Translations under genes and position numbers: made by a program
Shown here: positions 29,471 through 62,235 of the stretch, piece after piece
How positions within the stretch are numbered: position 1 is the first letter of the stretch
Layout: each line of letters starts with the position of its first letter
The notes under the pieces: generated by a model
Database searches by the model: none
What the model saw: the letters and a program-made list of their open reading frames with translations, nothing else
Told to the model about the DNA's origin: nothing
NCBI GenBank assembly: GCA_964562175.1
Contig: CAZLRV010000003.1
Coordinates: 15,001-79,000, forward strand
Length of the DNA stretch: 64,000 nucleotides
Direction of reading: 5' to 3'
DNA from: an uncultured Lachnospiraceae bacterium
Lineage (GTDB): Bacteria; Bacillota; Clostridia; Oscillospirales; CAG-272

Positions 29471-30974
29471 ATTTTATCTCAGCAGGCTCACGCTCGTACA
29501 AAGCAAGCGACTCGACAACGGCATCCGCATCGGATTTCGTTTCCACATACTCAAGTCCCCTCAGCTGTCTTGTTTCCCTGCCCTTGCCTATTACAAGCAC
29601 CACCTTATCCTCGCACCTGTCGCATATAGCTTCTCTTATCGCCGCAACTCTGTCGGTAATTATTTTATAAGGACAACCCGTAGCTTGAACATATTCCGCG
29701 ATCTGTCCGCATATCTCGTTCAAGTCCTCCTCGCCCTCGTCCTCCTCCGTTATTATGACGAGCGAAGAATTTTCTCCGCACGTGACACCGAGGTCATGCC
29801 GCCGTATTACCGCCTTTGTTCCGGGACAGCCGAACACCGTTATGATTTTCTTATTCGGATATTCTATCCGCACCGACTCATACAACGCCTCGGCACTCAG
29901 CTTGTTATGTGCATAATCTACGATTACAACCGTTCTGCCGTCACCGCTCTTGAATACTTCCATTCTGCCCGAAACATATGCGTTCTTCAATCCGTCCTTT
30001 ATGCTTTGCTTGTCAATACCCATTTTCATAGCCACGCCTATTGCGCACATTGCATTGTAAACATTGAACAGACCACTCATTGAAAGCTCGTACTCGTCGT
30101 ACTCGCCCCACGCCTCAACACCGAAGCTGATGCTATCGCCGCACTTTTTCTTGTACACGCACTTTATATCGCTTTCCACGCCGTTTCCGTACGTGATAAT
30201 ATTACAGCCCTTGCCCCTTGCGTATTCAAGTACACGCTCAAAATGCTCCATATCCGAGCATATAACGGCGTTTGCGCAGTTATCGAACAGCTTCATCTTT
30301 GAAGTAAAGTAATCCTCAAAATCCTTATGTTCAACATCGCTTATATGGTCGATACCGATATTCGTAAAGCAACCGAATCTGAAACGAATACCGTCAACAC
30401 GTCGAAACTTCAACGCCTGCGCCGACGTTTCTATCACCACATTCCGTATTCCGGACTTAACGCAATTCCCGAGCCGCCGCTGTAGCACGATAGCCTCTTG
30501 AGTCGTCAGGTGCGACTCCTCCTTGCTCACGCCGTCGTAATTGTCGATAGTCGAAAAAATACCGCATTGACTGCCGTAATACGTGTCCAATATCGACTTT
30601 ATAAAATAACAAGTCGTGCTTTTTCCCTTAGTACCCGTCACACCGATAATATTGCACAGATCGCACGCCCTGTCGTAATACTCACGACCGAGAAGCGCCA
30701 TGGCACGCCTGATATCGCTCACGATTATATGATCGCACTCGACATTATACTTCCGCTCGCCGACATATGCCACCGCACCGCGCCGTATCGCATCGACAAG
30801 ATAATCCTCTTTGAAATGCACGCCCTTGCATACAAACAACGCCTTTCCCTCAACCTCTCTGTTGTCAAAGCTCAAGCACTCAAGCTCGACATCTCTATCG
30901 CTTATACACGCATCGACTACCAAGCCCGCACCGCTCAATACATCAAGCAAATATCCTATCTCTCTGTTTTTCAT
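29469..30974 (-). CDS. Mur ligase family protein, MurE-like (UDP-MurNAc-L-Ala-D-Glu:amino acid ligase)
   Basis: 501 aa with P-loop GVTGTKGKSTT, a TNIGIDHI region, GRMEV, DYAHN and GKGRETRQ. The expected DNPR/DNPA position reads TEEDEGEED. Confidence 0.7.
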   Translation of the reverse strand: MKNREIGYLLDVLSGAGLVVDACISDRDVELECLSFDNREVEGKALFVCKGVHFKEDYLVDAIRRGAVAYVGERKYNVECDHIIVSDIRRAMALLGREYYDRACDLCNIIGVTGTKGKSTTCYFIKSILDTYYGSQCGIFSTIDNYDGVSKEESHLTTQEAIVLQRRLGNCVKSGIRNVVIETSAQALKFRRVDGIRFRFGCFTNIGIDHISDVEHKDFEDYFTSKMKLFDNCANAVICSDMEHFERVLEYARGKGCNIITYGNGVESDIKCVYKKKCGDSISFGVEAWGEYDEYELSMSGLFNVYNAMCAIGVAMKMGIDKQSIKDGLKNAYVSGRMEVFKSGDGRTVVIVDYAHNKLSAEALYESVRIEYPNKKIITVFGCPGTKAVIRRHDLGVTCGENSSLVIITEEDEGEEDLNEICGQIAEYVQATGCPYKIITDRVAAIREAICDRCEDKVVLVIGKGRETRQLRGLEYVETKSDADAVVESLALYEREPAEIK

Positions 30975-31001
30975 TCTATCCTCACCCGATTTAATACTAT
31001 A

Positions 31002-31030
31002 ATCCTACCACAAATATCGTCCCTTGTCAA
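31002..31030 (-). promoter_or_regulatory. candidate promoter for the murE-like gene
   Basis: On the minus strand: TTGACA (31030-31025), 17-nt spacer, TAGGAT (31007-31002). Confidence 0.45.
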
Positions 31031-31049
31031 GTGAATATCGCCCGATTGA

Positions 31050-31102
31050 CAAAAAATATTCCCGACAGATAGACCTGTACAGATCGCCCTGTCGGGAATA
31101 TT
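31050..31102 (-). terminator. strong rho-independent terminator closing the PqqD-giant-peptide operon
   Basis: 14-bp perfect arms aatattcccgacag (31055-31068) and ctgtcgggaatatt (31089-31102). A U-run on the minus strand corresponds to plus-strand A-run 31050-31056. It lies 13 nt after the stop of the 76-aa ORF. Confidence 0.8.
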
Positions 31103-31115
31103 TCATTTTATGAGT

Positions 31116-31346
31116 TTATGAGTTCACTATGACCGTGATCGTATGATAGCACGTTCCGTCGTACTCCGGACCCATCATTTCGCCGTAATCGCCTTCGCAT
31201 CCTTCTGTGGCAGAGTTAAATGCATTCCACTGTTCTTTTGCCATAGCTATCCAATCGTCTCCGCAGGATCCTGCGATTTTCGTTGTCAGCTCGAATTCCT
31301 CGAACTGTACCGTAGGAACAATATAAGCTTTTTTCATATTCTTCAT
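31116..31346 (-). CDS. 76-aa acidic, three-Cys peptide (candidate RiPP-like precursor or RRE ligand)
   Basis: A GAGGAG RBS sits 8 nt upstream, and the ORF starts 21 nt after the giant gene's stop. Sequence: MKNMKKAYIVPTVQFEEFELTTKIAGSCGDDWIAMAKEQWNAFNSATEGCEGDYGEMMGPEYDGTCYHTITVIVNS. Confidence 0.6.
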   Translation of the reverse strand: MKNMKKAYIVPTVQFEEFELTTKIAGSCGDDWIAMAKEQWNAFNSATEGCEGDYGEMMGPEYDGTCYHTITVIVNS

Positions 31347-31367
31347 TTCAACTGCTCCTCTCGGAAA

Positions 31368-34300
31368 TTATTCTTCAACCGTAATAGTCTTAACAACGTT
31401 CATGGGTGACTCTCTGCCGTCCTTGTCAAGTGCGGTAAACGTGTACTTGTAAGTACCCGCCTCAAGCACTCCGAGGTCAACACTCATCATCGCCTTTTCG
31501 CCGTAAGCTACCGTGTTCTGCGATACTATCTCAACTTCGTTGCCGTTTTCATCAACTGCCTTTACGCTCGTTGCGTTTGCACTTGCTATAACGCTTACGA
31601 CAACATTCTCGCCGTACTCGTATGCAACTGCCGCCGATACGGAATCGATCGTGATATTCTCATTGATCTGATATCCCTCGTTAGCCGCAAGCATTACGCC
31701 CATTACGCTCTTAACGATTTCCGCATCCAAGCTTGTCGCAACCGCACCGCCCTTTACAACGTCACCCAAATTGAATTCCTCAAGCGTACATCCCGCATAT
31801 TTAATGTTGGATACGCTGACAACGGAATCCTCATCGTCGCCGTTTCTGTCGAGCATTACGATAACGGTATACGAGCCGTCAACGTTGTTAATGCACTTGC
31901 TTACATCTATAGAGTGGTACATAGCCGTGTAAGAGGTTATCTTAGTCGAAGTAGCAGGTAAGGTCAATTTTTCGGTAGCTATATCGTAGCCGACATATTC
32001 ATACCAACCAAGGTCATTACCCGATGCCTTCTTTGCCTCTATCTCAAGCACTACATCCTCTACACTTACGCCGTCATTGGGAAGTACTCTGAATACCAAC
32101 GCATTTCTGTTGCCCATGAGGTAGACCTCATTGTTAGGACCGACATTCGCATAGCTGTAAGTGCCGTCGCTATCGGAGAACGACCATTCGCCGTCCTTAA
32201 GTTCATCCTTCCAATACGTGTCGATACGCTCAACAACGGAGTTACCTGCAGAGAAGCTTACCTGCGTTCCCGTTCCGTCGCCCGTAGGAACGAAATCAAC
32301 TATTCCTACCGTGGGATTGTTCTTAAGAATGTTTGCACGAAGCTCCTCGATAGTAACATTCTGTTCTTTATAATGGTTGGTAATATTACTGTCGTTCTTT
32401 ACCGGATCGTAAATTCTTACACCGTCAAGGTAGAATCTCGTACCCTTGCCGTTTACAGGCTTTGAAACGTAGATTTCAACCGTGTACTCGTTGTAAGGCA
32501 AATCACGTATGCTTATTATCGGCACCTGATCGAGATGTCCGTTTACATACTGCGTGATGACGATCTTCTGTTTTTCTATATCACCGTTGTTCTTTTTGAC
32601 AACTACACGTACCATTGCGGATGAAAGGTTCGTGAAGCTTATCAGCTCAAAGCCCGTACCGTTAAAGGTGAATGTTGCGTTCTTATTTGCTCCGCTGTAA
32701 TCCGTTGCGTCCGTGTACAGTGCCGCATATGTTCCGTTACTGAAGTTGTAGTTGTTACCTACACCGTCAAAGCCGCCGATACCTTTCTTGAAGGTGTAGC
32801 CGCCAAGACCTGTGTACCATTTGAACTGGCTGTTTTTTTCAATCGTGTCAACGGTCGTCGTATCGTCGAGGTAAGACTTATCATATCCGTAATTCTCGTT
32901 TTGATTCGAGGACTGAGTATTTTGTGTCGTACCTGTGACCTTGCCTGTGTTCAAGCCGTTACTATAAACTATCGAACCGATATTCTCCTCGTAATATACG
33001 ACATATGCAGGTACAAAGCTTATCTTCTTGTACATCTGAATACCGTATTTTACGGAATACTTTTGAGCGTTATCGGTAGACTGACAAGTTTCGTCGGTAA
33101 TACCTACCGCCACGTAAACATCATCCGAACCATGCAAGAACTTCGAGGGTGTGTAAGTCAGGGGCGTAGCAGCTGCGGCAGTCGAACCGGCAGTGCCTGC
33201 AAATGAACCGTATGTTCCGGTTTCACTGAAATTGCTCGTGTAGCCCTCAACCGTACCGCTTGTCGTAGCGGTGGGCGCACTCTTCTTGAAGCCCAATATT
33301 TCTCTAAGCTCGTCGCCGTTTGTCGACAAGCTCAACGTGTCACCACTGCCGCCCAAATAAGGCGTACCGTCTTTCTCACCGGGATCGGCATATACCGTAA
33401 CCGGCAAGCCGTAGTCAAGTACATACGTTACATCACTCAAGCCGTACGTAAATACCGTTACACCGTAAGGACCGAATTTCTGAACCTGCTGTGTAGTCGG
33501 GTCTTGGGCAATCAACGTAAAGAAGTATGACGTTGTACCCGTGTTCTTAACATTCGAGGTGACCTTAGTGTCTGAAATATTATATCCGTCTTGATATGCA
33601 CCCGAAAGTGTCGTACCCGCTGTGATCTTGTGATCTCCGCTCGTTATCTTGTTCTTGTTCGCATCACTGATGTAAACACCTATCGTGTTGTCTTTCTTCA
33701 ATGCTCCGTATGTCGAGCTTCCTATTCTCGTGCTGTCGCTTATTACATCCGTAATGCTGTAAGTACGGTTGTGGTCCTCCCAAAGGTATATCCACAGATC
33801 CGATATGTTTACAACGAACTGTGCGTTACCCTCAAGCGCCTTGTACTGTCCACCGCCCTGATCGAACTGTGAACGTACACTTACCGTATTTACAAATGTA
33901 TTTTGGTCGATATTTGACTGAGTAAGGTAGTATATAACTCCCTTGATCGTCATTTTTTGTCCCGACGTTATACCTTTCTTAAGTACAGATTTTGCACTTC
34001 CCAAATCGAGATTTGAGTAGGTATTGACCGTCTTGCCTGTCGAATCCGTTATTATTATTGTAAGCTCGCTGAGCTGTCTGTTTGTCGTGCTTCCGCCCTT
34101 GGGAGTATATGAACCAAGCTCACATCTCCATGAGGAATCGCTTGCATTGTCATATCCGAGCGCAAATCCGAGAGCCGAATCCGTAAACTGCATATATTCG
34201 ATCTTGTTACTCGTGTCCTTTGAAATGTTCTCTGCCGAGAAGGTATATTGAAGCTTGTCGGAATCCTGTACGTTGTCACCGAACTCCAGCTGCTCGCCTT

Positions 34301-37300
34301 CAAGATAGCAATCCTTTTCAACAGGCATATCCGGAGATGAAAGACGAATGTTTGTCTGTATTGCAAAGTTTGCCGCAATACCGTGACGCTCCATGTAGAA
34401 GAATCTGAACTCATAGCTCTCGCCCTCAACAAGTCCGAGCTTGTTCTTTACGTCGTTTACGTAAAGCTCAACATCCGTACGTGAGTGAGCGCCGCCTATA
34501 TCAAGCACAAGTTGATTGTTGATAAAGAGGTAAACGTCATCGTCTCCCATGAATCGGAAGTAAAGGTTATCCGCTTCGTGATAAACGAATGCCGCATGAC
34601 CTTCCATTGAGAAGTTGTAGTTAAAGCCGGTATATCTATCACCGAAAGGAGAGTTGATCGTAGTTGCATCCTCACCGAGATAGAAAGGATCCGTGTCGCC
34701 GTAGCCAAGCGCTGTTTTGCTTCCGCCCATTCCCTGCATTGAATTTCTGCTTGAACCCAAGGGGTTAAACATATAGTTATAGTCCGGAAGGGGTGATACT
34801 CTTGTTTGACCATTCTTTATCTTATAGTAAGGAGTCGAAACCGTCTGGGTATTGTAGATGGACTTGCTTTCCTCGTCGTATTTTGTGCCGGCAAATCCGG
34901 AGCTGAATGTGTAGTTATACTTACCGTTGTTATCGACGCTTCGTACAAGTGCGAGGTTGTTATAGTTGCTTATCTCCATGCTGTAGCCCGTGCCGGTAAC
35001 ATTTCTATTTTGGTCTTGACCGGTGACATAGAGGCTGTTGAGCATATAGAGTGCAACATCCATGCAGGTGAAGCTGCCCTTGGCGCCGTTTTTGAAATTG
35101 CTGAGATTGTAATTTCTGCTCTTGGCGGTATTGTAATCGCCTACTTCATAATGTGCATATGCACCGAACAGACCGTTTGCCGTGCTGTCATTGAGCTTTG
35201 ATCTGAGAAGTGCCGCAAAATCTTTTCCCTTACCGTAAAGCTCGTCGTTTACCTCGCCGATTATCATATTGTGGTGCAAGTAGCCCTTGGCATACGCTGA
35301 ATTCTGGGTGCCTTCCTTAAGTGCATAAGCTAAGACATTTGCCAAAAACTCAACCGTACCCTGCTTGTATACGGGCTTTCCGTTTACAAGTGTAGCCTCG
35401 GTAAGTCCCTGTACCGCTATACCGCGTATAAGAGTACCGTAGCTCGTATTAACACGATTGCTGACATTATAAGAAGTGGCGTGTTGCAAATAATTCTGAG
35501 AGCCCGGTCTTATCGTACCTGTGCCGTTAATACCGAATAGATACGCATCGTCGGTCTTCGTGAAATTAGCGGTATAGTTATCATTGCCGTTTCCTGTGGT
35601 TTTCTGCTCCAATGCAAGACCGAAAGCAATATGGTTGCTCCGCTGTTGTGCATAATCAACGACGGGGTTGTAGAAGGTAGCGTAAAATTTGCAATATGCT
35701 TTTTGCTCCTCTACGCTCTTGCTTGAACCGTCTTTCTTGGAATATTGCAAGAATGCGACCGCACCGCAATCGAGTGTACTGCCGTTTGAGCTTGAAACAT
35801 ATATTTGACTGCCCTTCCAGTTCATCGCTTTCAATTCAACGGCAGCTGTGTGCCATTGACCGTCATTTCTTACATCCGGTATCTCAAGTCTCATCGATGA
35901 TTCTATCGTAAAGTTGTCCCGTCTCGTCTCAACATTCAAATACAGCTTATCAGCCCCTGTTTTATAACGCACGTTTGCGTAGTATACGGCTTGGTCGTTT
36001 ACCGTACCCAAGTCATCCAAGGTCAGACCATTTCTATTGTAGGCATACAAGAATATCATTTGCTGGTCGTATTTGTCACGATATGTGTGTGAGTTCGCAT
36101 CACCGCCGCTTGACCAGCCCGCAGTGTATGTTCCTTCAAAATCGGCGTAGTTCATTGCCGCAACGGAGCATATCTTAAGAGTTCCGGAATAGTCGAGCTT
36201 AAAGCCATATGCATCTGAGCCTGTTGCGATCTTGATGAACAGATCGTGCCATTTGTTATCTTTATATATCTTATAGTCCGATGCACTTGATGCAATCGCG
36301 TTACCATTTGTGTCCGTATAACGTGCGGTTATGCTCGTAACATCGGAGGTCTTATAGCGGACTCTCATATATCTGTGCGTGCTGATTGTCAAAGTCTGTT
36401 GTTTACCTACCGCATTCCATTTCTTTGAAAAACCGTTCGTAAAGCTGTGATACGGGTAATAAGCATCGTCCGTTGCCATTTGACTGCCGTTATCGTTAAT
36501 ACATATGGCAACATATTGAATGTCAATGGTGCTGCCATTGTTATTCCCGTTATCGGTAAAGTCAAACCATATTTTTTTAATGTTGCCGGTCCAATTGGCA
36601 TTGCTTTTCATATTGAATACAAGATTGTGCCAATTTCCGTCTTTGTTAAGCGACTTTCCGACACGTTTTCCACCATCACGTCCACCGTCACCGTTTTGGA
36701 AGAATATACCCATATCGGACGCATTGGTATTTGAAGTTTTGTATCTGACAACTATACTTCCGTAGTTATCCGCCTTAAGTTCTTTACCTATGCTTCCGAA
36801 ATCGGCAAGAATGTAAGCATCTCCGTTTGAAACTTCTGTCTCAAATGTATAATAATCGCCGTTCGCATCGTATGTCGAACTGTATTTACCATCGGGATAA
36901 GAGGTGCCGTTTACATTCTTTGCCAATGTTACGAATCGAGTATACTCATAATTGTAATCGTATAATGCCTCGTTTTGTGAAACTCTGGCGGCTTTCGGGT
37001 CGATCTTACCGTAATCGCGGCGCAACACCTCATCCCTTGTTGCATTGTATTCTATCTGATATTTACCAAACCACATTTCGTTGAACTCAAAGAGCATACC
37101 GTCGGCGGCATAGTCTCTTATCGTTATGGGGAGGTAAATAGCGTCGTTCGTCGTTACCTGATTGTAACCGTTGACTCTCGCAACATCAGCTTCGTTTGTG
37201 GAATCATATGATTGAGCGGTGAAATTATCCAAGCACATCTCGGAATTTTCACCCGAGTCGCCGCGGCTTACAAAGCAGAAACGGCTGTAGTTACGGATAA

Positions 37301-38369
37301 GTGAATTGTCGACCGTTGTCAGCTCGATACCGCCGGCATCCTTTACGGAGCAGGTTCTGTAATACATACTTGTATCGTCTGTGATAGCAGCTTTTTCGGC
37401 AAAGGTTATGGTTTTTTCGTCGGCACCGGTCTGAGCCAAAAGGTGCGTCTTCATGCCGAGCGTACCGTAATTTCTGCCCTCGATGATAAAAAGCAATCTG
37501 CCGTTGAGATAGAATGTTATCGTTGCAAGGCTATTGTATATCTCTTTATTGCTCGACGGATTCAAATACTCACGACCGTTGTCAACTATTCTGTAGTCGT
37601 TCCACTGGGTAAGATCCTCCTGGACTTGGAAATTAACAAACACGTTGTCGACATATCTGTTCGAATAGCCGCTTCCGGTAAGTGCCTTTTTTATTACCAG
37701 TGTAAGTGTATGCTTACCCGATACCCAAAGGCCTATACCCGAGCCGCCGATGAATTTCTGGGTCTGCGTATCTCCTGAGCTTACAAGCGAATCGCTCTCG
37801 TAGTAGTTCAACGTAGCATAGTTAGGCTTTCTATACGCCTCAAAGTCTCCGGAGTCGCCTCTGAAAAAGAATGCGTTAGGGCTTGTGACGGATGTAACCG
37901 CCGATTTATACCGGAAGTTCAGCTCATAGCCCTGAGCTGCGTTTTTGTTGTTCGTTACGGCGTAGAAATTCGTTATCATCTGGAAATATTCATTTCCGTC
38001 GATCTTTAAATATTTCGAGCCGTCGGCACTGCCCTCCGAGGTAATGTAACCGGGGTTATTTCCCGAGCTTCCATTTGCTATAGTCGGAGTGAAGTAGTTC
38101 CAACCGCTTGCGCCGTGCGTTGCGTTTGATTTTTTTGTCATTATCGATTGTCCTTCCGCATCGCCGGCAAGATCGAAGGACAGATCTGCCCACTTGTCGT
38201 TATCAGAGTCTATAAAAGTCTTTGCGCTTGCGGGTCGTCCTATGGCTTCTCGTTCAAAGCCCGGTATCGTTCCGCTGTATGTATATGCAAGCATATCAAC
38301 GGGAAGCGATGTAGCGAGCATTATTGCCGTGAGGACACAGGCAAACAAGCGCAGCTTAAATCTCTTCAT
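31368..38369 (-). CDS. 2333-aa secreted giant protein with a fibro-slime/PA14-like domain, a LamG-like N-terminal region, and repeated beta-sandwich modules
   Basis: Strong RBS AGGAGG and signal peptide MKRFKLRLFACVLTAIMLATSLPVDMLA. Core FRFMGDDDVYLFINNQLVLDIGGAHS...YEFRFFYMERHGIAANFAIQTNI matches the fibro-slime (TIGR02148-type) signature from memory. I see no LPXTG, SLH, dockerin or C-terminal TM. Confidence 0.85.
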   Translation of the reverse strand: MKRFKLRLFACVLTAIMLATSLPVDMLAYTYSGTIPGFEREAIGRPASAKTFIDSDNDKWADLSFDLAGDAEGQSIMTKKSNATHGASGWNYFTPTIANGSSGNNPGYITSEGSADGSKYLKIDGNEYFQMITNFYAVTNNKNAAQGYELNFRYKSAVTSVTSPNAFFFRGDSGDFEAYRKPNYATLNYYESDSLVSSGDTQTQKFIGGSGIGLWVSGKHTLTLVIKKALTGSGYSNRYVDNVFVNFQVQEDLTQWNDYRIVDNGREYLNPSSNKEIYNSLATITFYLNGRLLFIIEGRNYGTLGMKTHLLAQTGADEKTITFAEKAAITDDTSMYYRTCSVKDAGGIELTTVDNSLIRNYSRFCFVSRGDSGENSEMCLDNFTAQSYDSTNEADVARVNGYNQVTTNDAIYLPITIRDYAADGMLFEFNEMWFGKYQIEYNATRDEVLRRDYGKIDPKAARVSQNEALYDYNYEYTRFVTLAKNVNGTSYPDGKYSSTYDANGDYYTFETEVSNGDAYILADFGSIGKELKADNYGSIVVRYKTSNTNASDMGIFFQNGDGGRDGGKRVGKSLNKDGNWHNLVFNMKSNANWTGNIKKIWFDFTDNGNNNGSTIDIQYVAICINDNGSQMATDDAYYPYHSFTNGFSKKWNAVGKQQTLTISTHRYMRVRYKTSDVTSITARYTDTNGNAIASSASDYKIYKDNKWHDLFIKIATGSDAYGFKLDYSGTLKICSVAAMNYADFEGTYTAGWSSGGDANSHTYRDKYDQQMIFLYAYNRNGLTLDDLGTVNDQAVYYANVRYKTGADKLYLNVETRRDNFTIESSMRLEIPDVRNDGQWHTAAVELKAMNWKGSQIYVSSSNGSTLDCGAVAFLQYSKKDGSSKSVEEQKAYCKFYATFYNPVVDYAQQRSNHIAFGLALEQKTTGNGNDNYTANFTKTDDAYLFGINGTGTIRPGSQNYLQHATSYNVSNRVNTSYGTLIRGIAVQGLTEATLVNGKPVYKQGTVEFLANVLAYALKEGTQNSAYAKGYLHHNMIIGEVNDELYGKGKDFAALLRSKLNDSTANGLFGAYAHYEVGDYNTAKSRNYNLSNFKNGAKGSFTCMDVALYMLNSLYVTGQDQNRNVTGTGYSMEISNYNNLALVRSVDNNGKYNYTFSSGFAGTKYDEESKSIYNTQTVSTPYYKIKNGQTRVSPLPDYNYMFNPLGSSRNSMQGMGGSKTALGYGDTDPFYLGEDATTINSPFGDRYTGFNYNFSMEGHAAFVYHEADNLYFRFMGDDDVYLFINNQLVLDIGGAHSRTDVELYVNDVKNKLGLVEGESYEFRFFYMERHGIAANFAIQTNIRLSSPDMPVEKDCYLEGEQLEFGDNVQDSDKLQYTFSAENISKDTSNKIEYMQFTDSALGFALGYDNASDSSWRCELGSYTPKGGSTTNRQLSELTIIITDSTGKTVNTYSNLDLGSAKSVLKKGITSGQKMTIKGVIYYLTQSNIDQNTFVNTVSVRSQFDQGGGQYKALEGNAQFVVNISDLWIYLWEDHNRTYSITDVISDSTRIGSSTYGALKKDNTIGVYISDANKNKITSGDHKITAGTTLSGAYQDGYNISDTKVTSNVKNTGTTSYFFTLIAQDPTTQQVQKFGPYGVTVFTYGLSDVTYVLDYGLPVTVYADPGEKDGTPYLGGSGDTLSLSTNGDELREILGFKKSAPTATTSGTVEGYTSNFSETGTYGSFAGTAGSTAAAATPLTYTPSKFLHGSDDVYVAVGITDETCQSTDNAQKYSVKYGIQMYKKISFVPAYVVYYEENIGSIVYSNGLNTGKVTGTTQNTQSSNQNENYGYDKSYLDDTTTVDTIEKNSQFKWYTGLGGYTFKKGIGGFDGVGNNYNFSNGTYAALYTDATDYSGANKNATFTFNGTGFELISFTNLSSAMVRVVVKKNNGDIEKQKIVITQYVNGHLDQVPIISIRDLPYNEYTVEIYVSKPVNGKGTRFYLDGVRIYDPVKNDSNITNHYKEQNVTIEELRANILKNNPTVGIVDFVPTGDGTGTQVSFSAGNSVVERIDTYWKDELKDGEWSFSDSDGTYSYANVGPNNEVYLMGNRNALVFRVLPNDGVSVEDVVLEIEAKKASGNDLGWYEYVGYDIATEKLTLPATSTKITSYTAMYHSIDVSKCINNVDGSYTVIVMLDRNGDDEDSVVSVSNIKYAGCTLEEFNLGDVVKGGAVATSLDAEIVKSVMGVMLAANEGYQINENITIDSVSAAVAYEYGENVVVSVIASANATSVKAVDENGNEVEIVSQNTVAYGEKAMMSVDLGVLEAGTYKYTFTALDKDGRESPMNVVKTITVEE
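34345..34640 (-). other. fibro-slime / PA14-like core (about aa 1245-1340 of the giant protein)
   Basis: GFNYNFSMEGHAAFVYHEADNLYFRFMGDDDVYLFINNQLVLDIGGAHSRTDVELYVNDV...GESYEFRFFYMERHGIAANFAIQTNIRL. Codons were verified against the DNA at 34321-34380 and 34501-34560. Confidence 0.7.
35745..36857 (-). repeat. three divergent protein-level modules of about 100-125 aa ('RYKT' modules) inside the giant protein
   Basis: Shared signatures are SIVVRYKTS...DGNWHNLVF, YMRVRYKTS...DNKWHDLFI and YANVRYKTG...DGQWHTAAV, with RYK at about aa 542, 671 and 801. Confidence 0.6.
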
Positions 38370-38472
38370 AAAATTTCCTCCTAATTCGTTTTAAGAAAGA
38401 ATGTTTCATCTATTTTAATCGGTCGCATCGGCTGTCACGCCGTGCGTACCGTTATGTAAGTTATCGAGGAGT

Positions 38473-38739
38473 CTACTCAGTCAGCAGGCCTTTAAGTCTG
38501 AGCATACGCAGCATCTTTTCGATATCGTCCTCGGCTTGATCCTTTTCCACCTCGTACTCATCGCACAAGAGCCGCACAAGCTCATCCGTTGTAACATCCT
38601 CGCCCAAGCGTTGCATTATCAGCGCACCTGATTCGGATGTGGTGATAATACCCTCATACGGATCGGAGCATGAGTTTACGGCAACAAAAACATATTCTCC
38701 CGCTATCTTTTTCATAACGAGCTTTTGTCTTAATCGCAT
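38473..38739 (-). CDS. PqqD-family (RiPP recognition element-like) small protein
   Basis: 88 aa: KKIAGEYVFVAVNS...GIITTSESGALIMQRLGEDVTTDELVRLLCDEYEVEKDQAEDDIEKMLRMLRLKGLL. This fits the PF05402 pattern (bound strand, then a winged helix with a 'YdV..e.a..Dv..fl..L...gli' tail). An AAGGAGGG RBS lies 7 nt upstream. Confidence 0.75.
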   Translation of the reverse strand: MRLRQKLVMKKIAGEYVFVAVNSCSDPYEGIITTSESGALIMQRLGEDVTTDELVRLLCDEYEVEKDQAEDDIEKMLRMLRLKGLLTE

Positions 38740-38773
38740 ACCTCTACCCTCCTTCGTATAATTTTACGGAGAT

Positions 38774-38802
38774 ATTGTATCATACAAAATATAATTTGTC
38801 AA
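38774..38802 (-). promoter_or_regulatory. consensus-like sigma-A promoter of the PqqD-giant-peptide operon
   Basis: On the minus strand: TTGACA (38802-38797), 17-nt spacer, TACAAT (38779-38774). The -10 element ends 34 nt upstream of the PqqD-like ATG. Confidence 0.7.
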
Positions 38803-39128
38803 GTGTTTTTGCAAAAAATTTTACATTTTTTCTTGGTTCTTCGGAGAAAATACGATCTGCCGTTTTGTTCGTTTCGACAGGGGCTTTTAGTGCGAATATA
38901 TTTTGCGGCATGGTCCGTCATAGTGGAATAATCGGCGGCTCGGTGGGTCTATTTGAAAAAAAGAAATTTCGTATTCGCCCACAGTCCGGTTCGCCTTCCG
39001 CTCTTTCACGGAGGGTGTCTTATTATATGATTACAATTCGAAGGTGGGATATATCGACGTAGGGCGTCGGTTTTTGAGGGACGGGCGTGAATATTTACAA
39101 AATATTTTTTCATAATTCACATTAGTTC

Positions 39129-39157
39129 TTGACAATCGGCTATGAATAATGTATAAT
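39129..39157 (+). promoter_or_regulatory. consensus sigma-A promoter for the transketolase operon
   Basis: TTGACA (39129-39134), 17-nt spacer, TATAAT (39152-39157). Confidence 0.75.
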
Positions 39158-39191
39158 ATATAGAGTTTACAAAATACGAAAGGATCAGACC

Positions 39192-40025
39192 ATGGACGAA
39201 CAGAAGAAATCGCAGCTATGTGAGCTTGCGAACAATATCAGGAAAGATATTATCACCGAGGTATACACGGCATCATCGGGCCATCCGGGCGGTTCGCTTT
39301 CAATCGCCGATCTGCTTGCATATCTTTATTTTGAAAAAATGAACGTAAAAGCGGACAATCCCAAATGGGAGGATCGTGACCGTCTTGTATTATCGAAGGG
39401 TCACACTGCGCCCGCACTTTACGCCGCACTTGCGGAGAAGGGCTTTTTCCCGAAGGAAGAGCTTGTGGGATTCAGAAACATAAATTCCTTTTTGCAGGGA
39501 CATCCCGACATGAAGCACACGCCGGGAGTTGATATGTCCTCCGGTTCGCTCGGCTTGGGAATTTCCGCAGCTTGCGGAATGGCACTCGGCGGTAAGGTAC
39601 AGAATAAGTCATTCAGAGTATATACGGTACTCGGTGACGGTGAGATAGCCGAGGGTCAGGTATGGGAGGCGGCAATGTTTGCCGCACATTACAAGCTTGA
39701 CAATTTGACGGCATTTGTCGATTGGAACGGCTTACAGATAGACGGAGCGATAGTTGACGTAATGGACTCCACGCCTATCGACGAAAAGTTCCGTGCATTC
39801 AAGTGGAACGTAGCGGTGATAGACGGTCACGACTTTGACCAAATAGACGAGGCTGTGACAAACGCCGAGGCGTGTGTCGGCAAGCCGAGTGTAATAATAA
39901 TGAAAACAATAAAAGGAAAAGGTGTTTCCTACATGGAAAACAAGGCAAGCTGGCACGGTTCCGCTCCGAATGCGGAGCAGTACGAGCAGGCTATGTCGGA
40001 GCTTGGGGGTAAGTGCAATGGCTGA
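39192..40025 (+). CDS. transketolase, N-terminal (TPP pyrophosphate-binding) subunit
   Basis: 277 aa with the pattern SSGHPGGSLSIADL...LSKGH...GSLGLG...LGDGE typical of split transketolase. Confidence 0.9.
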   Translation: MDEQKKSQLCELANNIRKDIITEVYTASSGHPGGSLSIADLLAYLYFEKMNVKADNPKWEDRDRLVLSKGHTAPALYAALAEKGFFPKEELVGFRNINSFLQGHPDMKHTPGVDMSSGSLGLGISAACGMALGGKVQNKSFRVYTVLGDGEIAEGQVWEAAMFAAHYKLDNLTAFVDWNGLQIDGAIVDVMDSTPIDEKFRAFKWNVAVIDGHDFDQIDEAVTNAEACVGKPSVIIMKTIKGKGVSYMENKASWHGSAPNAEQYEQAMSELGGKCNG

Positions 40026-53219: not shown

Positions 53220-54188
53220 TTAAAGCTTGTCTCTGAATATCTTCGGTGTTCTCTTATAGCTGAGCCGTCTCTTGTTTAGATTCTTTTCGTGATTTTCCGC
53301 ACAATAGTATCTTATGCGGCAAAGCGCTTCATCTCTCGGCTTGTCAAATACCGATATTAAGAATTTTTCCAACTCATCATACAGCTTGACGACGTGTTGT
53401 CCGTCATTCAAAGGGCAACACATAAGCATTTTTACGTATTCCTCATCGTTTTCGTCAAGCTGTTTTATTTTTTCTATCACATTGTCGATATCACCCACGC
53501 CCGAACATTCTATAAACGAGTCCTTGTTGAAATCAAGCCCTATCGCACTGCTTCCGTAATATATGGGTATGGAATGAAACCTGAACGAGTCCACGAGCTT
53601 TTCGGTAACGAAGCCCGGATAATGAATGCTGTCGGCGGCAATTGTAAATTTAGAGCTTAACAAATACTCATGCTTTTCTCGCCAATTACAGCCATTTGTT
53701 CCGACGTTGTTCAAATACGCACCGAATGATGTGACCTTTTTGTATTTTTCGGATATTTCATAAAACAGCCTTTCGCGTATCTCGTGGCTTGATCTATGGC
53801 GATATATAAAATTACAGAAGTACTTCTTTTGCTTCAATATTTCATACGCCCTCTCCTCCGTCAGCTCCTCCGGTACCCACGGTGTGGCATCATCGAAGTA
53901 AAACGCAAACGGCAGTCTGAAATATCTGCCCGGAAAATCAATCAGATCGAAGCCTATCACATAATCGAATACGGTGAAATCGGGAGATAGGTTCTCACCC
54001 ATAAACATAATTCTGACACAGTCGTATTTCATATACTCAAACGGCGTACAGCGGTTTGAGCATATAACAAAATCCGGTTCATCGCTTATTTCGACATTAA
54101 AATGTCTTTGCAGTATTCTGACAAAAAGATTGTCGTTCTTTTTGAAGCTTCCCCAAAAACCGCAAAAATCGACCTTTATCGTTTTCAT
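53220..54188 (-). CDS. glycosyltransferase family 10 (alpha-1,3/4-fucosyltransferase-like), paralog A
   Basis: 322 aa. KKYFCNFIYRH..., KFTIAADSIHYPGFVTEKLVDSFRFHSIPIYYGS and DFNKDSFI align by eye with the H. pylori FutA core (KFNLCFENTQGYGYVTEKIIDAYFSHTIPIYWGS...DFNPKSFV). It has a basic C-terminal tail. Confidence 0.8.
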   Translation of the reverse strand: MKTIKVDFCGFWGSFKKNDNLFVRILQRHFNVEISDEPDFVICSNRCTPFEYMKYDCVRIMFMGENLSPDFTVFDYVIGFDLIDFPGRYFRLPFAFYFDDATPWVPEELTEERAYEILKQKKYFCNFIYRHRSSHEIRERLFYEISEKYKKVTSFGAYLNNVGTNGCNWREKHEYLLSSKFTIAADSIHYPGFVTEKLVDSFRFHSIPIYYGSSAIGLDFNKDSFIECSGVGDIDNVIEKIKQLDENDEEYVKMLMCCPLNDGQHVVKLYDELEKFLISVFDKPRDEALCRIRYYCAENHEKNLNKRRLSYKRTPKIFRDKL

Positions 54189-54209
54189 ATCATTTACACC
54201 TCTGCATGA

Positions 54210-55223
54210 TCACCTTATTCGCAATAGCTTTCTTATTTTTCGGGTTAGCTTTCTTTTCTTCTTAAATTTCAGATGATATTCTCTGTACTGATCCAAGCAA
54301 TTGTTATATCTATCTGCGGCAAACTCTCTTACACGTCTTATTCTTTGCTCTCTCGGTCGTGAGGTAATGTTGAGTAAAAAGCTCTCAAGCTCATCGTATT
54401 TCTTCTTTATGTGGTCGTATGAGGGCAAGGGGCATTTCATAAGCATATCCATGTACGCCTCATCGTCGTTGTCAAGCCGAATGACCTCATTGACAACTCT
54501 TTCGATATCGTCCACACCCTTACATACTATACAAGCGTCCGTGTTGAAATCTCTGCCTATTTCGGGATTGCCGAAATATATGGGTATTGAATGATTCATA
54601 AAAGCGTGCGTTATTTTCTCGGTAACAAAGCCGGGATACGATATGCTGTCAACGGCTATGGTAAACTTCGAGTTCTTTACTATCTCATACTTTTCCTTGT
54701 AATCGATATTTTTATTGCTTGTAATGCCTTTTTCCACGGCGTTGTTGAGATACGGTCCTGCGGATGTTACCTCTTTATATTCGTTTAATGCATCAAATAA
54801 CTTTTTTCGCATTCCATGGTTCGGCTCATGATTATATATGAAATTGCAAAAATACTTCTTTTCCTTCATTATTCTTTCCGCATCCTCGCGTGTCAGCTTT
54901 TGGGGGATATACGATCCCTCATCGCGAATATACGCAAACGGCATTCTGATATATCTGTCGGAGAAGGTAATAAAATCAAAGCCCATGACGTAGTCAAACG
55001 AGGTGAAATCGGGCGAAATGTTTTCGCATATTTCCATAAGTCTGGGGCAATCCCGATATTTTGCCCATTGAAACGGATCACCCAAATTTCCGGCAATAAC
55101 AAGGTCGGGAGATTCGTCACACAGCTCAACATCATAATATTTACTGTAAATTTGATAATACAAGCTTACCTTTGGCTTGAGAGCGCTATAAAAATTACAA
55201 AATTTGATTTTTAATTTTTCCAT
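54210..55223 (-). CDS. glycosyltransferase family 10 (fucosyltransferase-like), paralog B
   Basis: 337 aa, roughly 45% identical by eye to paralog A. KFTIAVDSISYPGFVTEKITHAFMNHSIPIYFGN. The C-terminal tail HLKFKKKRKLTRKIRKLLRIR is very basic. Confidence 0.8.
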   Translation of the reverse strand: MEKLKIKFCNFYSALKPKVSLYYQIYSKYYDVELCDESPDLVIAGNLGDPFQWAKYRDCPRLMEICENISPDFTSFDYVMGFDFITFSDRYIRMPFAYIRDEGSYIPQKLTREDAERIMKEKKYFCNFIYNHEPNHGMRKKLFDALNEYKEVTSAGPYLNNAVEKGITSNKNIDYKEKYEIVKNSKFTIAVDSISYPGFVTEKITHAFMNHSIPIYFGNPEIGRDFNTDACIVCKGVDDIERVVNEVIRLDNDDEAYMDMLMKCPLPSYDHIKKKYDELESFLLNITSRPREQRIRRVREFAADRYNNCLDQYREYHLKFKKKRKLTRKIRKLLRIR

Positions 55224-58132: not shown

Positions 58133-59845
58133 ATGCATAACCGACGTTTTTTTACAAAGGCACTGCTTTGCTTTGTTCTTTCGCTTACACTCTGCCTGTC
58201 CGTTTTCACATTTACGGCAGGGGCTGAGCGTGAGCAGGATAAGGCTCTGCTGTCCGTACACGCATCGAATACAAATCCCAAGCCCGGCGACACCATCACC
58301 GTAACGGTGAAAATAGATAACTATGTATCAATGGTGCCGTTTATCTCCGCAATGCATATCGATATAGGCTACGACGCCGATATCTTCGAATTTGCCGATG
58401 TCGAATGCTTGCTTAACGTGAACACCGACGATGCAGTGGGCTTGAATGAAGACGGTGGTGTTGTATCGTTTTATTACGTTTATTCTCACAACAAGCCGCT
58501 TGACAAAATATCCGATTTTAAGATATTTTCTTTCGATCTCACAGTCAAGGAAACGGTCAGTGTGAATACGGCTACAACATTTGATGTTAAGAAATGTGTG
58601 TTGTACAACAACAATGACAAATACTCGGTCATAGGTTGTCAATCGCCGATGCTCGTTGACGAGCTGAACATTTGGGCAAGCTCCGCCGCCCTGCTCATGA
58701 ACGGAAGTGAGGAGAACAAGGGCAGCTACACTACCTCCGTTAAGCTCGATTTCAAGTCACCCTCGGCACAGCTTACGAGAAACTCCGGCAGTGTTATGAC
58801 GATAGAATCCGGCTACAGTTGCGTACATAACGGAAATTACAAGCTCACCCTCACCGTTGACGGTAAGAGCGTTGAGCAAAGCTTTACGATAAACAAAAAA
58901 GTCGCCTCCGTCGGCGTTGTTTATGATCCGCTGTTCAACGACCTTGAATTTATGGTCGGTGTGGATCCGAGCGTATATTTCTCACGAGGCACGGTCAAGG
59001 TCACATATTCCGATGAAACCTCGGGCGATCTGCCTCTGTCCGATTCCGACTTCAAAATAACCGGCTACAATATGAATATGCCCGGTGAGCAGACGGTAAC
59101 GATCGAATATTACGGTGTAAAGACCTCGCACACGATAACATTTGTCGAAAAGGGTATTGCCTCGGTAAGCATTGACGGTGCGCTTAAATACAATCAATTT
59201 CTCGTAAACGACCCGATCGAAACCTCCGGTATCACGCTTAACGTGAGATTTGACGACGGCTCAACAGATAACGCTCCGATAAACGCCGATATGATTACGT
59301 ACAATAACGCAATAGGCGCACAGAGCGTAACGGTAAAATACGGCACATACGAATATAAGGATGCTTTTTCCGTTACTTTCGTTTCACGTGAACGCTTCGA
59401 CAGCTTCAAAACGGGTCTTGATGCACTCGACTTGTCAACGCTTACAACAGCCGACGCCGAACGTGTGACTGCACTCGTTCAGCTTTACAACTCGTTTGAT
59501 GAGGTTGAAAAGCGTGCTTGCACCGAGGATATGAGAAGTAAGCTTGCTTCCGCCCGTGCCGCCGTCGGCTCGACCGAACCGACCACTCCTACAGCGAGTG
59601 CGGCTGTTAGTGAGGACAACTCGAACGATTCCTCCGGCTCATCAAAATGGTTGATAATAGTAATAATAGTTATCGTAGTTCTTGCGGCTCTTGCGGGCGG
59701 TGGATATTTCCTGCTTGCATATCTGAAACGCAAGCGCGAGGATTCAGAGGAATACTACTACGACGAGAACGAAACGAATGTCTACGAAGACGATTTTCTG
59801 CCTAAATTCGATGAAAACGACAAGGAGGACGATGATGAAGAATAA
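58133..59845 (+). CDS. surface protein: signal peptide, cohesin-like domain, Ig-like repeats, Thr/Pro/Ser linker, C-terminal TM anchor and acidic cytoplasmic tail
   Basis: 570 aa. LLSVHASNTNPKPGDTITVTVKIDNYVSMVPFISAMHIDIGYDADIFEFADVE resembles the cohesin N-terminal strands. GEQTVTIEYYGVKTSHTITFV is an Ig-like (group 3 type) repeat. The TM helix is WLIIVIIVIVVLAALAGGGYFLLAYL. Confidence 0.6.
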   Translation: MHNRRFFTKALLCFVLSLTLCLSVFTFTAGAEREQDKALLSVHASNTNPKPGDTITVTVKIDNYVSMVPFISAMHIDIGYDADIFEFADVECLLNVNTDDAVGLNEDGGVVSFYYVYSHNKPLDKISDFKIFSFDLTVKETVSVNTATTFDVKKCVLYNNNDKYSVIGCQSPMLVDELNIWASSAALLMNGSEENKGSYTTSVKLDFKSPSAQLTRNSGSVMTIESGYSCVHNGNYKLTLTVDGKSVEQSFTINKKVASVGVVYDPLFNDLEFMVGVDPSVYFSRGTVKVTYSDETSGDLPLSDSDFKITGYNMNMPGEQTVTIEYYGVKTSHTITFVEKGIASVSIDGALKYNQFLVNDPIETSGITLNVRFDDGSTDNAPINADMITYNNAIGAQSVTVKYGTYEYKDAFSVTFVSRERFDSFKTGLDALDLSTLTTADAERVTALVQLYNSFDEVEKRACTEDMRSKLASARAAVGSTEPTTPTASAAVSEDNSNDSSGSSKWLIIVIIVIVVLAALAGGGYFLLAYLKRKREDSEEYYYDENETNVYEDDFLPKFDENDKEDDDEE

Positions 59846-62114: not shown

Positions 62115-62201
62115 TCCGTGTCTCCGATCGGGGCATAAATCAACAAAAATCAAGATCATCGCATAAAGTGGTGACCTTGATCCTTGCTTTAGTGTACAAG
62201 T

Positions 62202-62235
62202 CTGTCGCATTATATGCTATAGCATAATGCGACAG
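62202..62235 (-). other. intercistronic near-perfect palindrome / stem-loop between the binding-protein and permease genes
   Basis: ctgtcgcattatatgctatagcataatgcgacag has arms of about 15-17 nt and no following U-run. Confidence 0.6.

Follow-up and report, generated by a model that had tools for sequence, protein, structure and literature searches.

Results

A discrete RRE gene heads a three-gene operon

The locus lies on the reverse strand of a 64-kb window, by which we mean the whole stretch of DNA analysed (64,000 nucleotides). It is a bounded three-gene unit that runs from a promoter through the gene for a small RRE protein, the gene for a 2333-aa exoprotein and the gene for a 76-aa peptide to an intrinsic terminator, with the following features:

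38774..38802 (-): predicted sigma-70-type promoter, TTGACA-17-TACAAT, with TG directly 5' of the second hexamer (11/12 matches)
38473..38739 (-): discrete RRE/PqqD-family protein, lasso-B1/LppB-like, 88 aa (PF05402, AlphaFold2, Foldseek)
38420..38451 (-): stable hairpin without an adjacent U-tract, within the 103 nt that separate the RRE and giant genes (z -2.7)
31368..38369 (-): giant secreted protein, 2333 aa; about aa 1-28 resemble a signal peptide (ORF, domains, orthologs)
34329..34625 (-): PA14/fibro-slime domain, giant aa 1249-1347 (PF07691 46.5 bits; TIGR02148 82.4 bits)
32025..32783 (-): domain of about 250 aa, giant aa 1863-2115, common to the VWA exoproteins of L017/L018 (blastp E 1e-11 to 7e-14)
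31116..31346 (-): 76-aa precursor-like peptide with a conserved leader (aa 1-30), conserved Cys 28/50/66 and an invariant C-terminal Ser (ORF, alignment)
31308..31325 (-): codons for Y8-I-V-P11-T-V13, the YxxPxV RRE-recognition motif (motif definition from PMC13381572)
31047..31104 (-): intrinsic terminator closing the three-gene unit, 17-bp outer stem and U-tract (dG -29.1 kcal/mol, z -5.75)

The RRE reading frame (38739..38473, reverse strand) opens with ATG, is preceded by a ribosome-binding site (AGGAGGG, 7 nt 5' of the ATG) and encodes 88 aa, MRLRQKLVMKKIAGEYVFVAV...LKGLLTE. The positions of promoter and start codon imply a leader of about 28 nt, with the transcription start predicted from sequence alone; the near-consensus promoter agrees with an earlier note on this DNA, which had proposed expression from an operon promoter through a leader of about 30 nt. 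That note had also placed the RRE gene as first cistron 103 nt ahead of a signal-peptide-bearing protein of 2333 aa, and this is correct: the downstream product begins with a sequence like that of a signal peptide and contains a PA14/fibro-slime domain. The complete trio is also present in L013, a Lachnospiraceae MAG, at 45-68% identity. There the equivalent promoter site, read by eye, is TTGACA-N17-TATAAA, the spacer between the RRE and giant genes likewise folds strongly (z -4.0), and an equivalent terminator is found. The spacer hairpin of the window could be an attenuator, a processing element or a stability element; an Rfam scan of positions 30900-39300 returned zero matches.

The 88-aa protein belongs to the lasso-B1/LppB type

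The 88-aa protein is a discrete member of the leader-peptide-binding-type (RRE/PqqD) family, of the lasso-B1/LppB type. Scoring against PF05402, which the earlier note had suggested for its stand-alone PqqD/RRE assignment, gave 50.6 bits (E 2.4e-13), clearing the gathering cutoff of 23.4, with protein residues 17-86 matching model positions 3-67 of 67. All NCBIfam PqqD-type models stayed under their cutoffs; the lasso PqqD chaperone models scored highest (34.9 and 26.3 bits), and the pqqD model of PQQ biosynthesis, TIGR03859, reached 20.9 bits against a cutoff of 46. The AlphaFold2 model (mean pLDDT 92.7) has the beta3-alpha3 winged-helix layout, with strands at residues 7-12, 15-20 and 31-34 and helices at 36-44, 51-62 and 66-82, and its best Foldseek matches are TbiB1 (5v1u, TM 0.74), PqqD (5sxy, TM 0.72) and TfuB1 (6jx3, TM 0.71). 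These lasso B1 matches, together with the PF05402 score and the model confidence, bear out the assignment. A profile of the family searched against the PDB found TbiB1 (8e-13), TfuB1, PbaB1 (9x90) and LppB (9x8z; 1.4e-4), the last being the discrete RRE of the linear polyphosphorylated peptide (LPP) clusters of Bacillota (Popov et al., Nat Commun 2026, PMC13381572).

LppB aligns with the window protein without gaps over the peptide-binding half, at an offset of +2, so that Y60, D70, F74, M78 and L83 of LppB correspond to Y62, D72, M76, L80 and L85. As a separate observation, M76 takes the place of the LppB divider residue F74, and we counted this against the leader-binding explanation favoured below. 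Across 60 aligned family members D72 and A69 are near-invariant, and the gene itself shows pN 0.21 and pS 0.59. A word-indexed homolog search with the protein gave a single match, a 98%-identical copy; an exhaustive HMMER search reached further relatives.

Tailoring enzymes are absent from the window

A discrete RRE is usually encoded beside the enzyme that it serves. The window does not have this arrangement: among its larger ORFs, which were covered by Pfam or NCBIfam scans or by the Pfam labels of the near-identical locus L004, none encodes a tailoring enzyme, a leader peptidase or an exporter. An HprK-like kinase (LppK) was not found in the six-frame window at E <= 10 with a custom HMM derived from four ScmC/HprK-like neighbours, and the domains of an SpI/archaeal-type signal peptidase I (LppS), an MsbA-like exporter (LppD) and an NTP-transferase (LppN) are absent from the scanned ORFs, the window's only ABC genes (60647-62210) being an importer-type pair. 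Also absent from the window is any rSAM/SPASM maturase, its sole rSAM protein being a methylthiotransferase of the MiaB/RimO type (UPF0004 + Radical_SAM + TRAM). The scanned ORFs likewise hold no B2 cysteine protease, Asn-synthetase-like macrolactam cyclase or lasso-type core, and pqqA, B, C and E were not found in the window. Any tailoring of the 76-aa peptide would have to be supplied in trans, or is absent.

Relatives and gene contexts

A genome scan with the giant protein found only L013, and units of the window type were found in only three to four lineages, with partial versions in two beyond L013. L019 has the RRE gene and a giant-like gene behind a different upstream gene, and L005-L007 have the giant and peptide genes with a different downstream flank, the peptide gene of L005 being followed by a histidine kinase gene. 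The giant shares 45% identity with its ortholog in L013 and 50% with that in L005. The closest outside relative of the RRE, P0004 (L014; 49% identity), is encoded immediately ahead of murE, 8 nt away, and is accompanied by neither giant nor peptide. Longer contigs from the L014 and L005 lineages carry P0272/P0273 and P0274/P0275, respectively.

The L014 gene pair might suggest that the RRE-like protein is tied to MurE and cell-wall synthesis and not to a peptide, the more so as murE follows the unit both in the window and in L013. In both, however, a strong terminator and a separate promoter intervene between the unit and murE, and for this reason we reject such a partnership. It is further opposed by L005, where the peptide gene precedes the kinase gene and not murE, by L019, where the RRE gene precedes the giant-like gene, and by the literature searched, in which we found no Mur ligase that uses an RRE; we regard the MurE connection as extremely improbable.

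The more distant relatives of the RRE belong either to LPP-type clusters, which have an HprK-like kinase, an SpI-like peptidase, an ABC exporter and an NTP-transferase, or to a radical SAM/SPASM cluster. The full LPP core set stands beside family RREs in L015 and L028-L031. In L017/L018 a family RRE is accompanied by an HprK/ScmC-like protein (the name ScmC was assigned to the HprK-like neighbours via NCBIfam), an rSAM gene and a Cys-containing peptide homologous to the 76-aa peptide; the partial rSAM product comprises the radical SAM core only and fits rSAM/SPASM-type maturases. The earlier note had envisaged that homologs might adjoin classical maturases and that the window locus might be a one-off rearrangement. 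The first holds for the distant homologs, with their HprK-like kinase, SpI-like peptidase, NTP-transferase or rSAM/SPASM neighbours; against the second, the trio is kept in L013, RRE and giant in L019, and giant and peptide in L005. In four cluster types a YxxP-leader peptide gene lies directly behind the gene for a large signal-peptide protein, and the exoproteins of these types are mostly unrelated to each other.

The 76-aa peptide carries a constrained leader with a YxxPxV motif

The sequence YIVPTV near the N-terminus of the 76-aa peptide fits [Y/W]xxPx[L/V/I/F/A], the motif that B1/LppB-type RREs recognize according to crystal structures and mutagenesis (PMC13381572). The leader continues after the motif with QFEEFELTTKIAGS, whose register differs from that of the LPP leader, YxxPxVLxHQxIxFETxxS. 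The phenylalanine at Tyr+10, which in the LPP consensus stands at Tyr+13, is a further observation that we counted against leader binding. The leader is the most constrained stretch of the peptide, with 26 of its first 30 residues invariant across three lineages whose giants are 45-50% identical; the leader has a pN of 0.08-0.14 and the core one of 0.18-0.36, at saturated synonymous sites. A strict leader regex matched only small peptides beside family RREs (27 loci, six frames), and an HMM built from the three window-type peptides matched, among 5491 ORFs, the L017/L018 peptides (E 0.002-0.006) and L027 (E 1.8e-4). L027 was also the only find of a metagenome scan with the peptide alignment, its 62-aa peptide likewise starting with MKNMKKAY; no family annotation is attached to the neighbouring genes, and we set L027 aside as uninformative for the window operon. 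A double-glycine reading of the leader, ending ...ELTTKIAG before S, was dropped by eye, with misfits at the -4/-2 positions and no C39-ABC exporter.

In an AlphaFold2 model of the 76-aa peptide fused to the RRE the leader was undocked; the peptide half had no alignment depth, and because leader residues 1-19 fall below pLDDT 50 the model speaks neither for nor against docking. The peptide core forms a helix (aa 31-46) and a C-terminal strand in this model.

We infer, with a probability of roughly 0.6, that the ligand of the RRE is the N-terminal leader of the 76-aa peptide of its own operon, and that the operon is a maturase-less relative of known RiPP-recognition clusters. That the RRE acts on this distal peptide was one of two options in the earlier note; at the sequence level it is supported by the YIVPTV motif, by the constrained leader and by homologous leaders beside family RREs elsewhere, the fusion model having left the leader undocked. 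Alternatively, the RRE and the peptide might be a functionless, decaying remnant of a RiPP cluster stripped of its enzymes, linked to the giant only incidentally. Such decay could account for the lack of enzymes in cis and for the L014 relative, which has lost giant and peptide and keeps its RRE beside murE, and patchy gain and loss is typical of LPP systems (PMC13381572). Both genes, however, are intact, have strong predicted expression signals and are under purifying selection at saturated synonymous sites, and the near-invariance of the leader across three lineages with only 45-50% identical giants is likewise difficult to reconcile with decay, making a remnant improbable.

The giant exoprotein is an unlikely ligand

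The earlier note's other option, that the RRE recognizes the giant itself, for example its N-terminal region prior to export, draws on the adjacency of the two genes, 103 nt apart, and on the recurrence of this adjacency in L013 and L019. The giant, however, contains one match to [YW]xxPx[LVIFAM] (YFTPTI, aa 92), compared with 1.1 +/- 1.0 in shuffled sequences, and the ortholog reads YFDAIP at this site. The 76-aa peptide has a much better and conserved motif, and family RREs elsewhere pair with small leader peptides. Binding to the giant is left unsupported by these results, and we consider it very improbable.

Outside the PA14/fibro-slime domain, no other family was detected in the remaining ~2200 aa of the giant at E <= 0.01 (Pfam) or 0.1 (NCBIfam), and no anchor motif was recognized. 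The L017/L018 VWA exoproteins that share its domain of about 250 aa precede the peptide homologous to the 76-aa peptide.

Discussion

In the proposed interaction, Tyr8 and Pro11 of the leader would insert into the hydrophobic cleft between the beta-sheet and the helices of the RRE, Asp72 would hydrogen-bond the hydroxyl of Tyr8, and the residues that follow the YxxPxV motif would extend the RRE sheet by a strand. The operon would then be a pared-down relative of clostridial clusters that have the same kinds of RRE and leader peptide. Since tailoring enzymes are absent within 64 kb, the RRE would either present the peptide to enzymes from other parts of the genome or merely hold it.

The latter option can be taken further, with the pair working unmodified: the RRE would be a cytoplasmic holdase or adaptor for the 76-aa peptide in the service of the giant exoprotein, with the complex or the freed peptide acting, for example, as a partner subunit of the giant, helping in its export or assembly, or regulating its production. 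The missing enzymes in cis, the bounding of the three genes as one operon in two lineages, the position of leader peptide genes right behind large signal-peptide proteins in four cluster types and the predicted helix and strand of the peptide core are all compatible with such a role. LppB is insoluble without its peptide (PMC13381572), from which it follows that stable RRE-peptide complexes exist. On the other hand, we found no RRE with such an enzyme-free role in the literature searched, the three conserved cysteines and the C-terminal Ser resemble sites of modification, and there is mostly no relationship among the exoproteins of the four cluster types. Moreover, the 76-aa peptide has no signal peptide and the window encodes no exporter for it, which leaves its contact with a secreted giant unexplained. 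An unmodified pair is therefore doubtful in our view, although less so than a decaying remnant.

A broader and tentative proposal, to which we give low odds, is that the LPP-like leader peptides and RREs of Clostridia form a distributed system tied to exoproteins, in which the precursor gene sits directly behind the exoprotein gene, tightly coupled in several cases. The window pair would then be an enzyme-free or trans-modified accessory of the PA14 giant, possibly as a co-factor of a matrix or adhesin or as a partner in assembly or regulation, and the RRE-leader interaction would be in use outside classical natural-product biosynthesis.

RREs serve as class-independent beacons for the mining of RiPP clusters, on the assumption that an enzyme is encoded next door. 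That assumption is broken here, because a conserved and selected RRE-precursor pair has no enzyme in cis and flanks a giant gene. If enzymes are supplied to the pair in trans, pathways of this kind would escape cluster-based mining; if no enzymes are involved, the RRE-leader interaction would have been put to another use. The recurrence of YxxP-leader peptides behind large secreted proteins is also a concrete lead on the role of LPP-type peptides, on which the authors only speculate, suggesting a relation to biofilms (PMC13381572).

Comparison with known systems

With the large secreted fibro-slime/PA14 proteins (TIGR02148, PF07691) the window giant shares the domain and the signal peptide. 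We know of no description of an RRE and leader peptide coupled to this domain. PA14 occurs in only 7 of 126 LPP neighbourhoods (Supplementary Data 2, PMC13381572).

The discrete RREs of rSAM/SPASM systems (ScmD of SynChlorMet, StsC of streptosactin, PqqD with PqqE) resemble the window RRE through the family member in L017/L018, and cysteines are present in the 76-aa peptide; an rSAM/SPASM enzyme, however, is absent from the window, and the NCBIfam models for ScmD, PqqD and the GeoRSP PqqD score far under their cutoffs. The lasso B1 proteins (TbiB1, 5v1u/5v1v; TfuB1, 6jx3; PbaB1, 9x90) are the top profile and structural matches of the window RRE and share the logic of a [Y/W]xxPx[L/V/I] leader motif, whereas the peptide, with 76 aa and three Cys, is unlike lasso precursors.

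Unlike the LPP clusters, the window lacks the kinase LppK, the peptidase LppS, the exporter LppD and the transferase LppN, and the giant exoprotein gene separates its RRE and peptide genes. Its leader differs after YxxPxV (Phe at Tyr+10, with FET-xx-S absent), and the family profile matches LppB (1.4e-4) less strongly than TbiB1 or PbaB1. Nevertheless, the 76-aa peptide also combines a YxxPxV leader with a variable C-terminal part and falls within the 35-200 aa range of LPP precursors (PMC13381572). The window RRE, like LppB, is a small, stand-alone protein of the PqqD fold that keeps the aligned Tyr-binding Asp in a same or similar pocket (Y62, D72 and L85, with L80 for LppB M78).

Identity of the RRE and its operon

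The gene under study encodes an 88-aa protein that the earlier note had read as a stand-alone PqqD-like RiPP recognition element (RRE), and the scoring against Pfam PqqD (PF05402) that it proposed gave 50.6 bits (E 2.4e-13; gathering score 23.4), with nearly the full model covered. The NCBIfam matches were all sub-threshold and all to PqqD-type peptide chaperones, the lasso-peptide models being best. An AlphaFold2 model built on an alignment of 60 homologs (mean pLDDT 92.7) has a three-strand, three-helix winged-helix layout, and its top Foldseek matches in the PDB are TbiB1 (5v1u/5v1v, TM 0.74), PqqD (5sxy, TM 0.72) and TfuB1 (6jx3, TM 0.71); TbiB1 and TfuB1 are lasso leader-binding proteins. 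Given the family match, the fold and the ranking of lasso B1 proteins and PqqD, the protein is a genuine discrete RRE of the lasso-B1/LppB type, a known kind of protein. The gene lies in the following arrangement.

38802..38774, minus strand: predicted promoter-like site, TTGACA-17-TACAAT
38739..38473, minus strand: RRE gene, 88 aa, ATG start
38369..31368, minus strand: gene for the giant protein, 2333 aa
31346..31116, minus strand: 76-aa peptide ORF
directly 3' of the 76-aa ORF, minus strand: predicted terminator, 17-bp hairpin with a long loop, then a U-run (dG -29.1 kcal/mol, z -5.75)
31030..31002, minus strand: predicted promoter-like site of murE, which lies further downstream

The first promoter-like site is near consensus, with a TG before the second hexamer; AGGAGGG and then the ATG come after it, for a predicted leader of ~28 nt, close to the ~30 nt suggested before. 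The giant gene begins 103 nt past the RRE stop codon, and its spacing, length and signal-peptide-like N-terminus are as the note had described. The RRE-giant spacer holds a stable hairpin without a U-tract, and no separate promoter-like site was found in it; the 76-aa ORF starts 21 nt after the giant stop codon. A related locus, L013, has a promoter sequence and a terminator equivalent to these. By the promoter and terminator, murE's own promoter-like site and the L013 equivalents, RRE, giant and peptide make up one bounded operon of three genes, to which murE does not belong. No known RNA family of the Rfam type was found in 30900-39300. The spacer hairpins (window 38420-38451, minus strand, z -2.7; L013:9900-9960, z -4.0), neither a canonical terminator, could set the RRE:giant transcript ratio.

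The unit in other genomes

The three-gene unit is rare, but it is not a one-off. L013, from an uncultured Lachnospiraceae MAG (CAZCJU010000005.1), encodes an RRE, giant and peptide of 68%, 45% and 60% identity, with flanks as in the window. In another sample series (L005-L007) a giant of 50% identity and a peptide are followed on the 3' flank by an opposite-strand two-component system, the 5' side being cut off. At L019 a 41%-identical RRE is followed after 81 nt by a protein that has a signal peptide and shows homology (E 2e-9) to giant aa 409-592, and a HAD hydrolase gene, as opposed to transketolase, lies upstream. The nearest relative of the RRE from outside, at 49% identity, is encoded on a 3.5-kb contig of GCA_965311735.1 (L014:173-1958); its gene precedes murE by 8 nt, giant and peptide both being absent in between, and an opposite-strand condensation-domain (NRPS-like) gene lies downstream; from the identity matrix, secondary loss would most simply account for this locus.

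The only domain matches in the giant are PA14 and fibro-slime, at aa 1249-1347. Giant aa 409-430 (window 37080-37145, minus strand; DAIYLPITIRDYAADGMLFEF) match the beginning of the mature L019 protein at 76% identity; by eye DAIYLPITIRDYAADGMLFEF looks like the start of a fibro-slime/PA14 module, and, the HMM match lying ~840 aa further on, it may be a second or split module.

The peptide as the likely ligand

The 76-mer matched no family in Pfam or NCBIfam. It has one relative of 63% identity (P0003) and one of 60% identity in L013. All three peptides agree at 26 of their first 30 positions, while the remainder varies except for three Cys, a DG-x-CYHT motif and a C-terminal Ser. In the leader, nonsynonymous divergence is 0.08-0.14, against 0.18-0.36 for the core, with synonymous sites saturated; for the RRE, pN is 0.21 against a pS of 0.59. 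Both genes are under purifying selection.

Small peptides at L017/L018, L028-type loci and L015 have the motif K-x-Y-x-x-P-x-[VIM]-x-x-x-x-F in common with that of the window, and in all four cluster types the peptide gene lies immediately 3' of a gene for a protein of >1000 aa.

Table. Large proteins, spacing to the peptide gene, and peptide leaders
Window: PA14 exoprotein; 21-nt gap; KKAYIVPTVQFEEFEL
L017: VWA exoprotein; 1-nt overlap; KRTYIKPEIRMEHFTL
L028: Big_2 exoprotein; 21-nt gap; KKTYAKPEIEITAFTT
L015: beta-helix/Flg_new exoprotein; 62-nt gap; KQKYEKPEMEIQEFEI

Matches to the strict leader regex were confined to these peptides (27 loci, six frames), and an HMM of the three window-type peptides recovered those of L017/L018 among 5491 ORFs (E 0.002-0.006). 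A 62-aa peptide on a 3.8-kb metagenome contig (L027:1540-1728; MKNMKKAYVTPVAEKLVFDYTENVTASCG...) has the first eight residues and YxxP motif of the window peptide, and is flanked by large ORFs without family annotation, one of which (486 aa) is very acidic.

Linear polyphosphorylated peptides (LPPs) were described in Bacillota by Popov et al., Nat Commun 2026 (PMC13381572), where crystal structures (9x8z, 9x90) and mutagenesis established how the RRE binds [Y/W]xxPx[L/V/I/F/A]. The leader Tyr occupies a hydrophobic pocket, where it hydrogen-bonds D70 of the RRE LppB, with the Pro sandwiched against F74 and the residues after it extending the sheet (PMC13381572). LppB aligns ungapped to positions 31-86 of our family profile, which places its Y60, D70, F74, M78 and L83 at Y62, D72, M76, L80 and L85 of the window RRE; D72 is nearly invariant across the family.

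The earlier note had left two ligands open, the distal 76-mer and the giant itself. The former is favoured, since the 76-mer has the exact recognition motif (YxxPxV) within a highly constrained leader, whereas the giant has one match (aa 92; 1.1 expected by chance), which is not kept in L013. These comparisons make the 76-mer, and not the giant, the likely RRE ligand. In an AlphaFold2 model of a 76-mer-RRE fusion, meant to probe docking of the leader and with no alignment depth in its peptide half, the RRE half was confident and leader residues 1-19 had pLDDT <50.

The wider RRE family

An exhaustive HMMER search returned 975 cluster representatives at E <= 0.001, most of ~88 aa and matched end to end, and a sample of these had the following contexts.

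Eubacterium barkeri L015: 2798-aa beta-helix/Flg_new protein, 36-aa peptide, RRE, 158-aa protein (weak archaeal signal-peptidase-I match), HprK/ScmC-like P-loop protein, MsbA-like ABC transporter, NTP_transf_5 protein
L028-L031: ~1030-aa Big_2 exoprotein, 56-aa peptide, HprK/ScmC-like protein; divergently, RRE, SpI-like protein (E 1.6e-5), ABC transporter, NTP_transf_5 protein
L017/L018: RRE, LuxR-type STAND regulator, ~1000-aa VWA exoprotein, 94-aa Cys peptide, HprK/ScmC-like gene, radical SAM gene
L021-L026 (Clostridiales metagenome contigs, e.g. L024:9199-11767): HprK/ScmC-like gene overlapping the 5' end of the gene for an 87-aa RRE, then DUF1846 (UPF0371-like, 492 aa) and groES/groEL, a housekeeping region
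L020: divergent partial radical SAM gene beside the RRE

The contig ends within the L017/L018 radical SAM gene; the core of this gene product matches rSAM/SPASM-type maturases, as does that of L020, and an N-terminal RRE is lacking from the L017/L018 product. The 845-aa STAND-ATPase/LuxR-type regulator gene immediately 3' of the L017 RRE gene (L017:523-3060) suggests that this exoprotein-peptide-rSAM cluster is under transcriptional control. No YxxP-leader peptide was found within 10 kb of the L021-L026 pair, and the substrate of this orphan kinase and RRE must be encoded elsewhere. Distant relatives thus do adjoin tailoring genes, a finding that the earlier note would have counted against its reading if this locus were a one-off rearrangement; the latter is not borne out, as the window unit recurs.

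A signal peptide was read in the large protein of three of the four cluster types (window, L017/L018, L028), the L015 N-terminus lying outside the locus examined. A ~250-aa C-terminal domain is common to window-type and L017-type exoproteins (E 1e-11 to 7e-14); the others are unrelated. In LPP neighbourhoods, PA14 occurs in 7/126 and Big_2 in 2/126 (Supplementary Data 2 of PMC13381572), and the main text of that paper, from which 'surface', 'adhesin', 'exoprotein' and 'Clostridi' are absent, does not discuss the pattern. With so few independent cases, it is a lead and no established result.

Tailoring enzymes and a possible mechanism

Other window ORFs of at least 150 aa (minus a few overlapping longer ORFs) were assigned by Pfam/NCBIfam or from precomputed Pfam labels of the near-identical L004. 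Genes for transketolase, TruB, Mfd, M16 peptidases, Lgt, MurE, cardiolipin synthase, HisRS, AspRS, gyrase, SRP54 and the like make up these surroundings, all of them housekeeping or unrelated, and tailoring genes are absent from the ORFs scanned. The sole radical SAM protein among these is a methylthiotransferase of UPF0004 + rSAM + TRAM architecture. A custom HprK/ScmC-like HMM, made from four family-RRE neighbours, gave zero matches at E <= 10 in the six-frame window. Two tandem GT10 fucosyltransferase genes, and a cohesin/Big_3 protein beside a Big_2/dockerin protein, are encoded at 53220-55223 (minus strand) and 58133-60578 (plus strand); a glycan-decorating member of the Clostridia, of cellulosome type, is the probable host.

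The RRE would bind the 76-mer leader in the manner of LppB and B1 proteins, the conserved Cys triad and C-terminal Ser would be the modification sites, and the modifying enzymes, candidates being an HprK-like kinase and/or an rSAM/SPASM enzyme, would be encoded elsewhere. RRE systems can indeed be dispersed, as the L021-L026 pairs sit in housekeeping regions without a nearby precursor. Alternatively, the RRE-peptide pair may act without modification. As to the proposed Ser site, all window-type peptides and those of L017 and L028 end in Ser (window 31116-31121, minus strand; L013:17301-17303; L028:6474-6476), unlike that of L015, which ends in Asn. In paeninodin-like lasso peptides the multiply phosphorylated Ser is the C-terminal one. 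A further and rather unlikely reading is that the RRE-leader pair has been co-opted to assist large secreted proteins, or belongs to a dispersed pathway that cluster-based mining would not see.

Comparison with known systems

In LPP clusters the core genes are those for LppB (the discrete RRE), LppK (HprK-like kinase), LppS (archaeal-type signal peptidase), LppD (MsbA-like exporter) and LppN (NTP-transferase); the precursors, 35-200 aa long, share the conserved leader YxxPxVLxHQxIxFETxxS and vary at the C-terminus (PMC13381572). Paeninodin-like lasso clusters, too, have HprK-like kinases that put multiple phosphates on a Ser (PMC13381572). L015 and L028-L031 carry the full LPP core set, with sub-threshold kinase and peptidase matches. 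The window unit, in contrast, lacks the defining enzymes and thus does not belong to the LPP, lasso, rSAM/SPASM or PQQ clusters; at the recognition step it plausibly works as they do. It is a variant system—a conserved, enzyme-less RRE-precursor pair that brackets the gene for a giant exoprotein.
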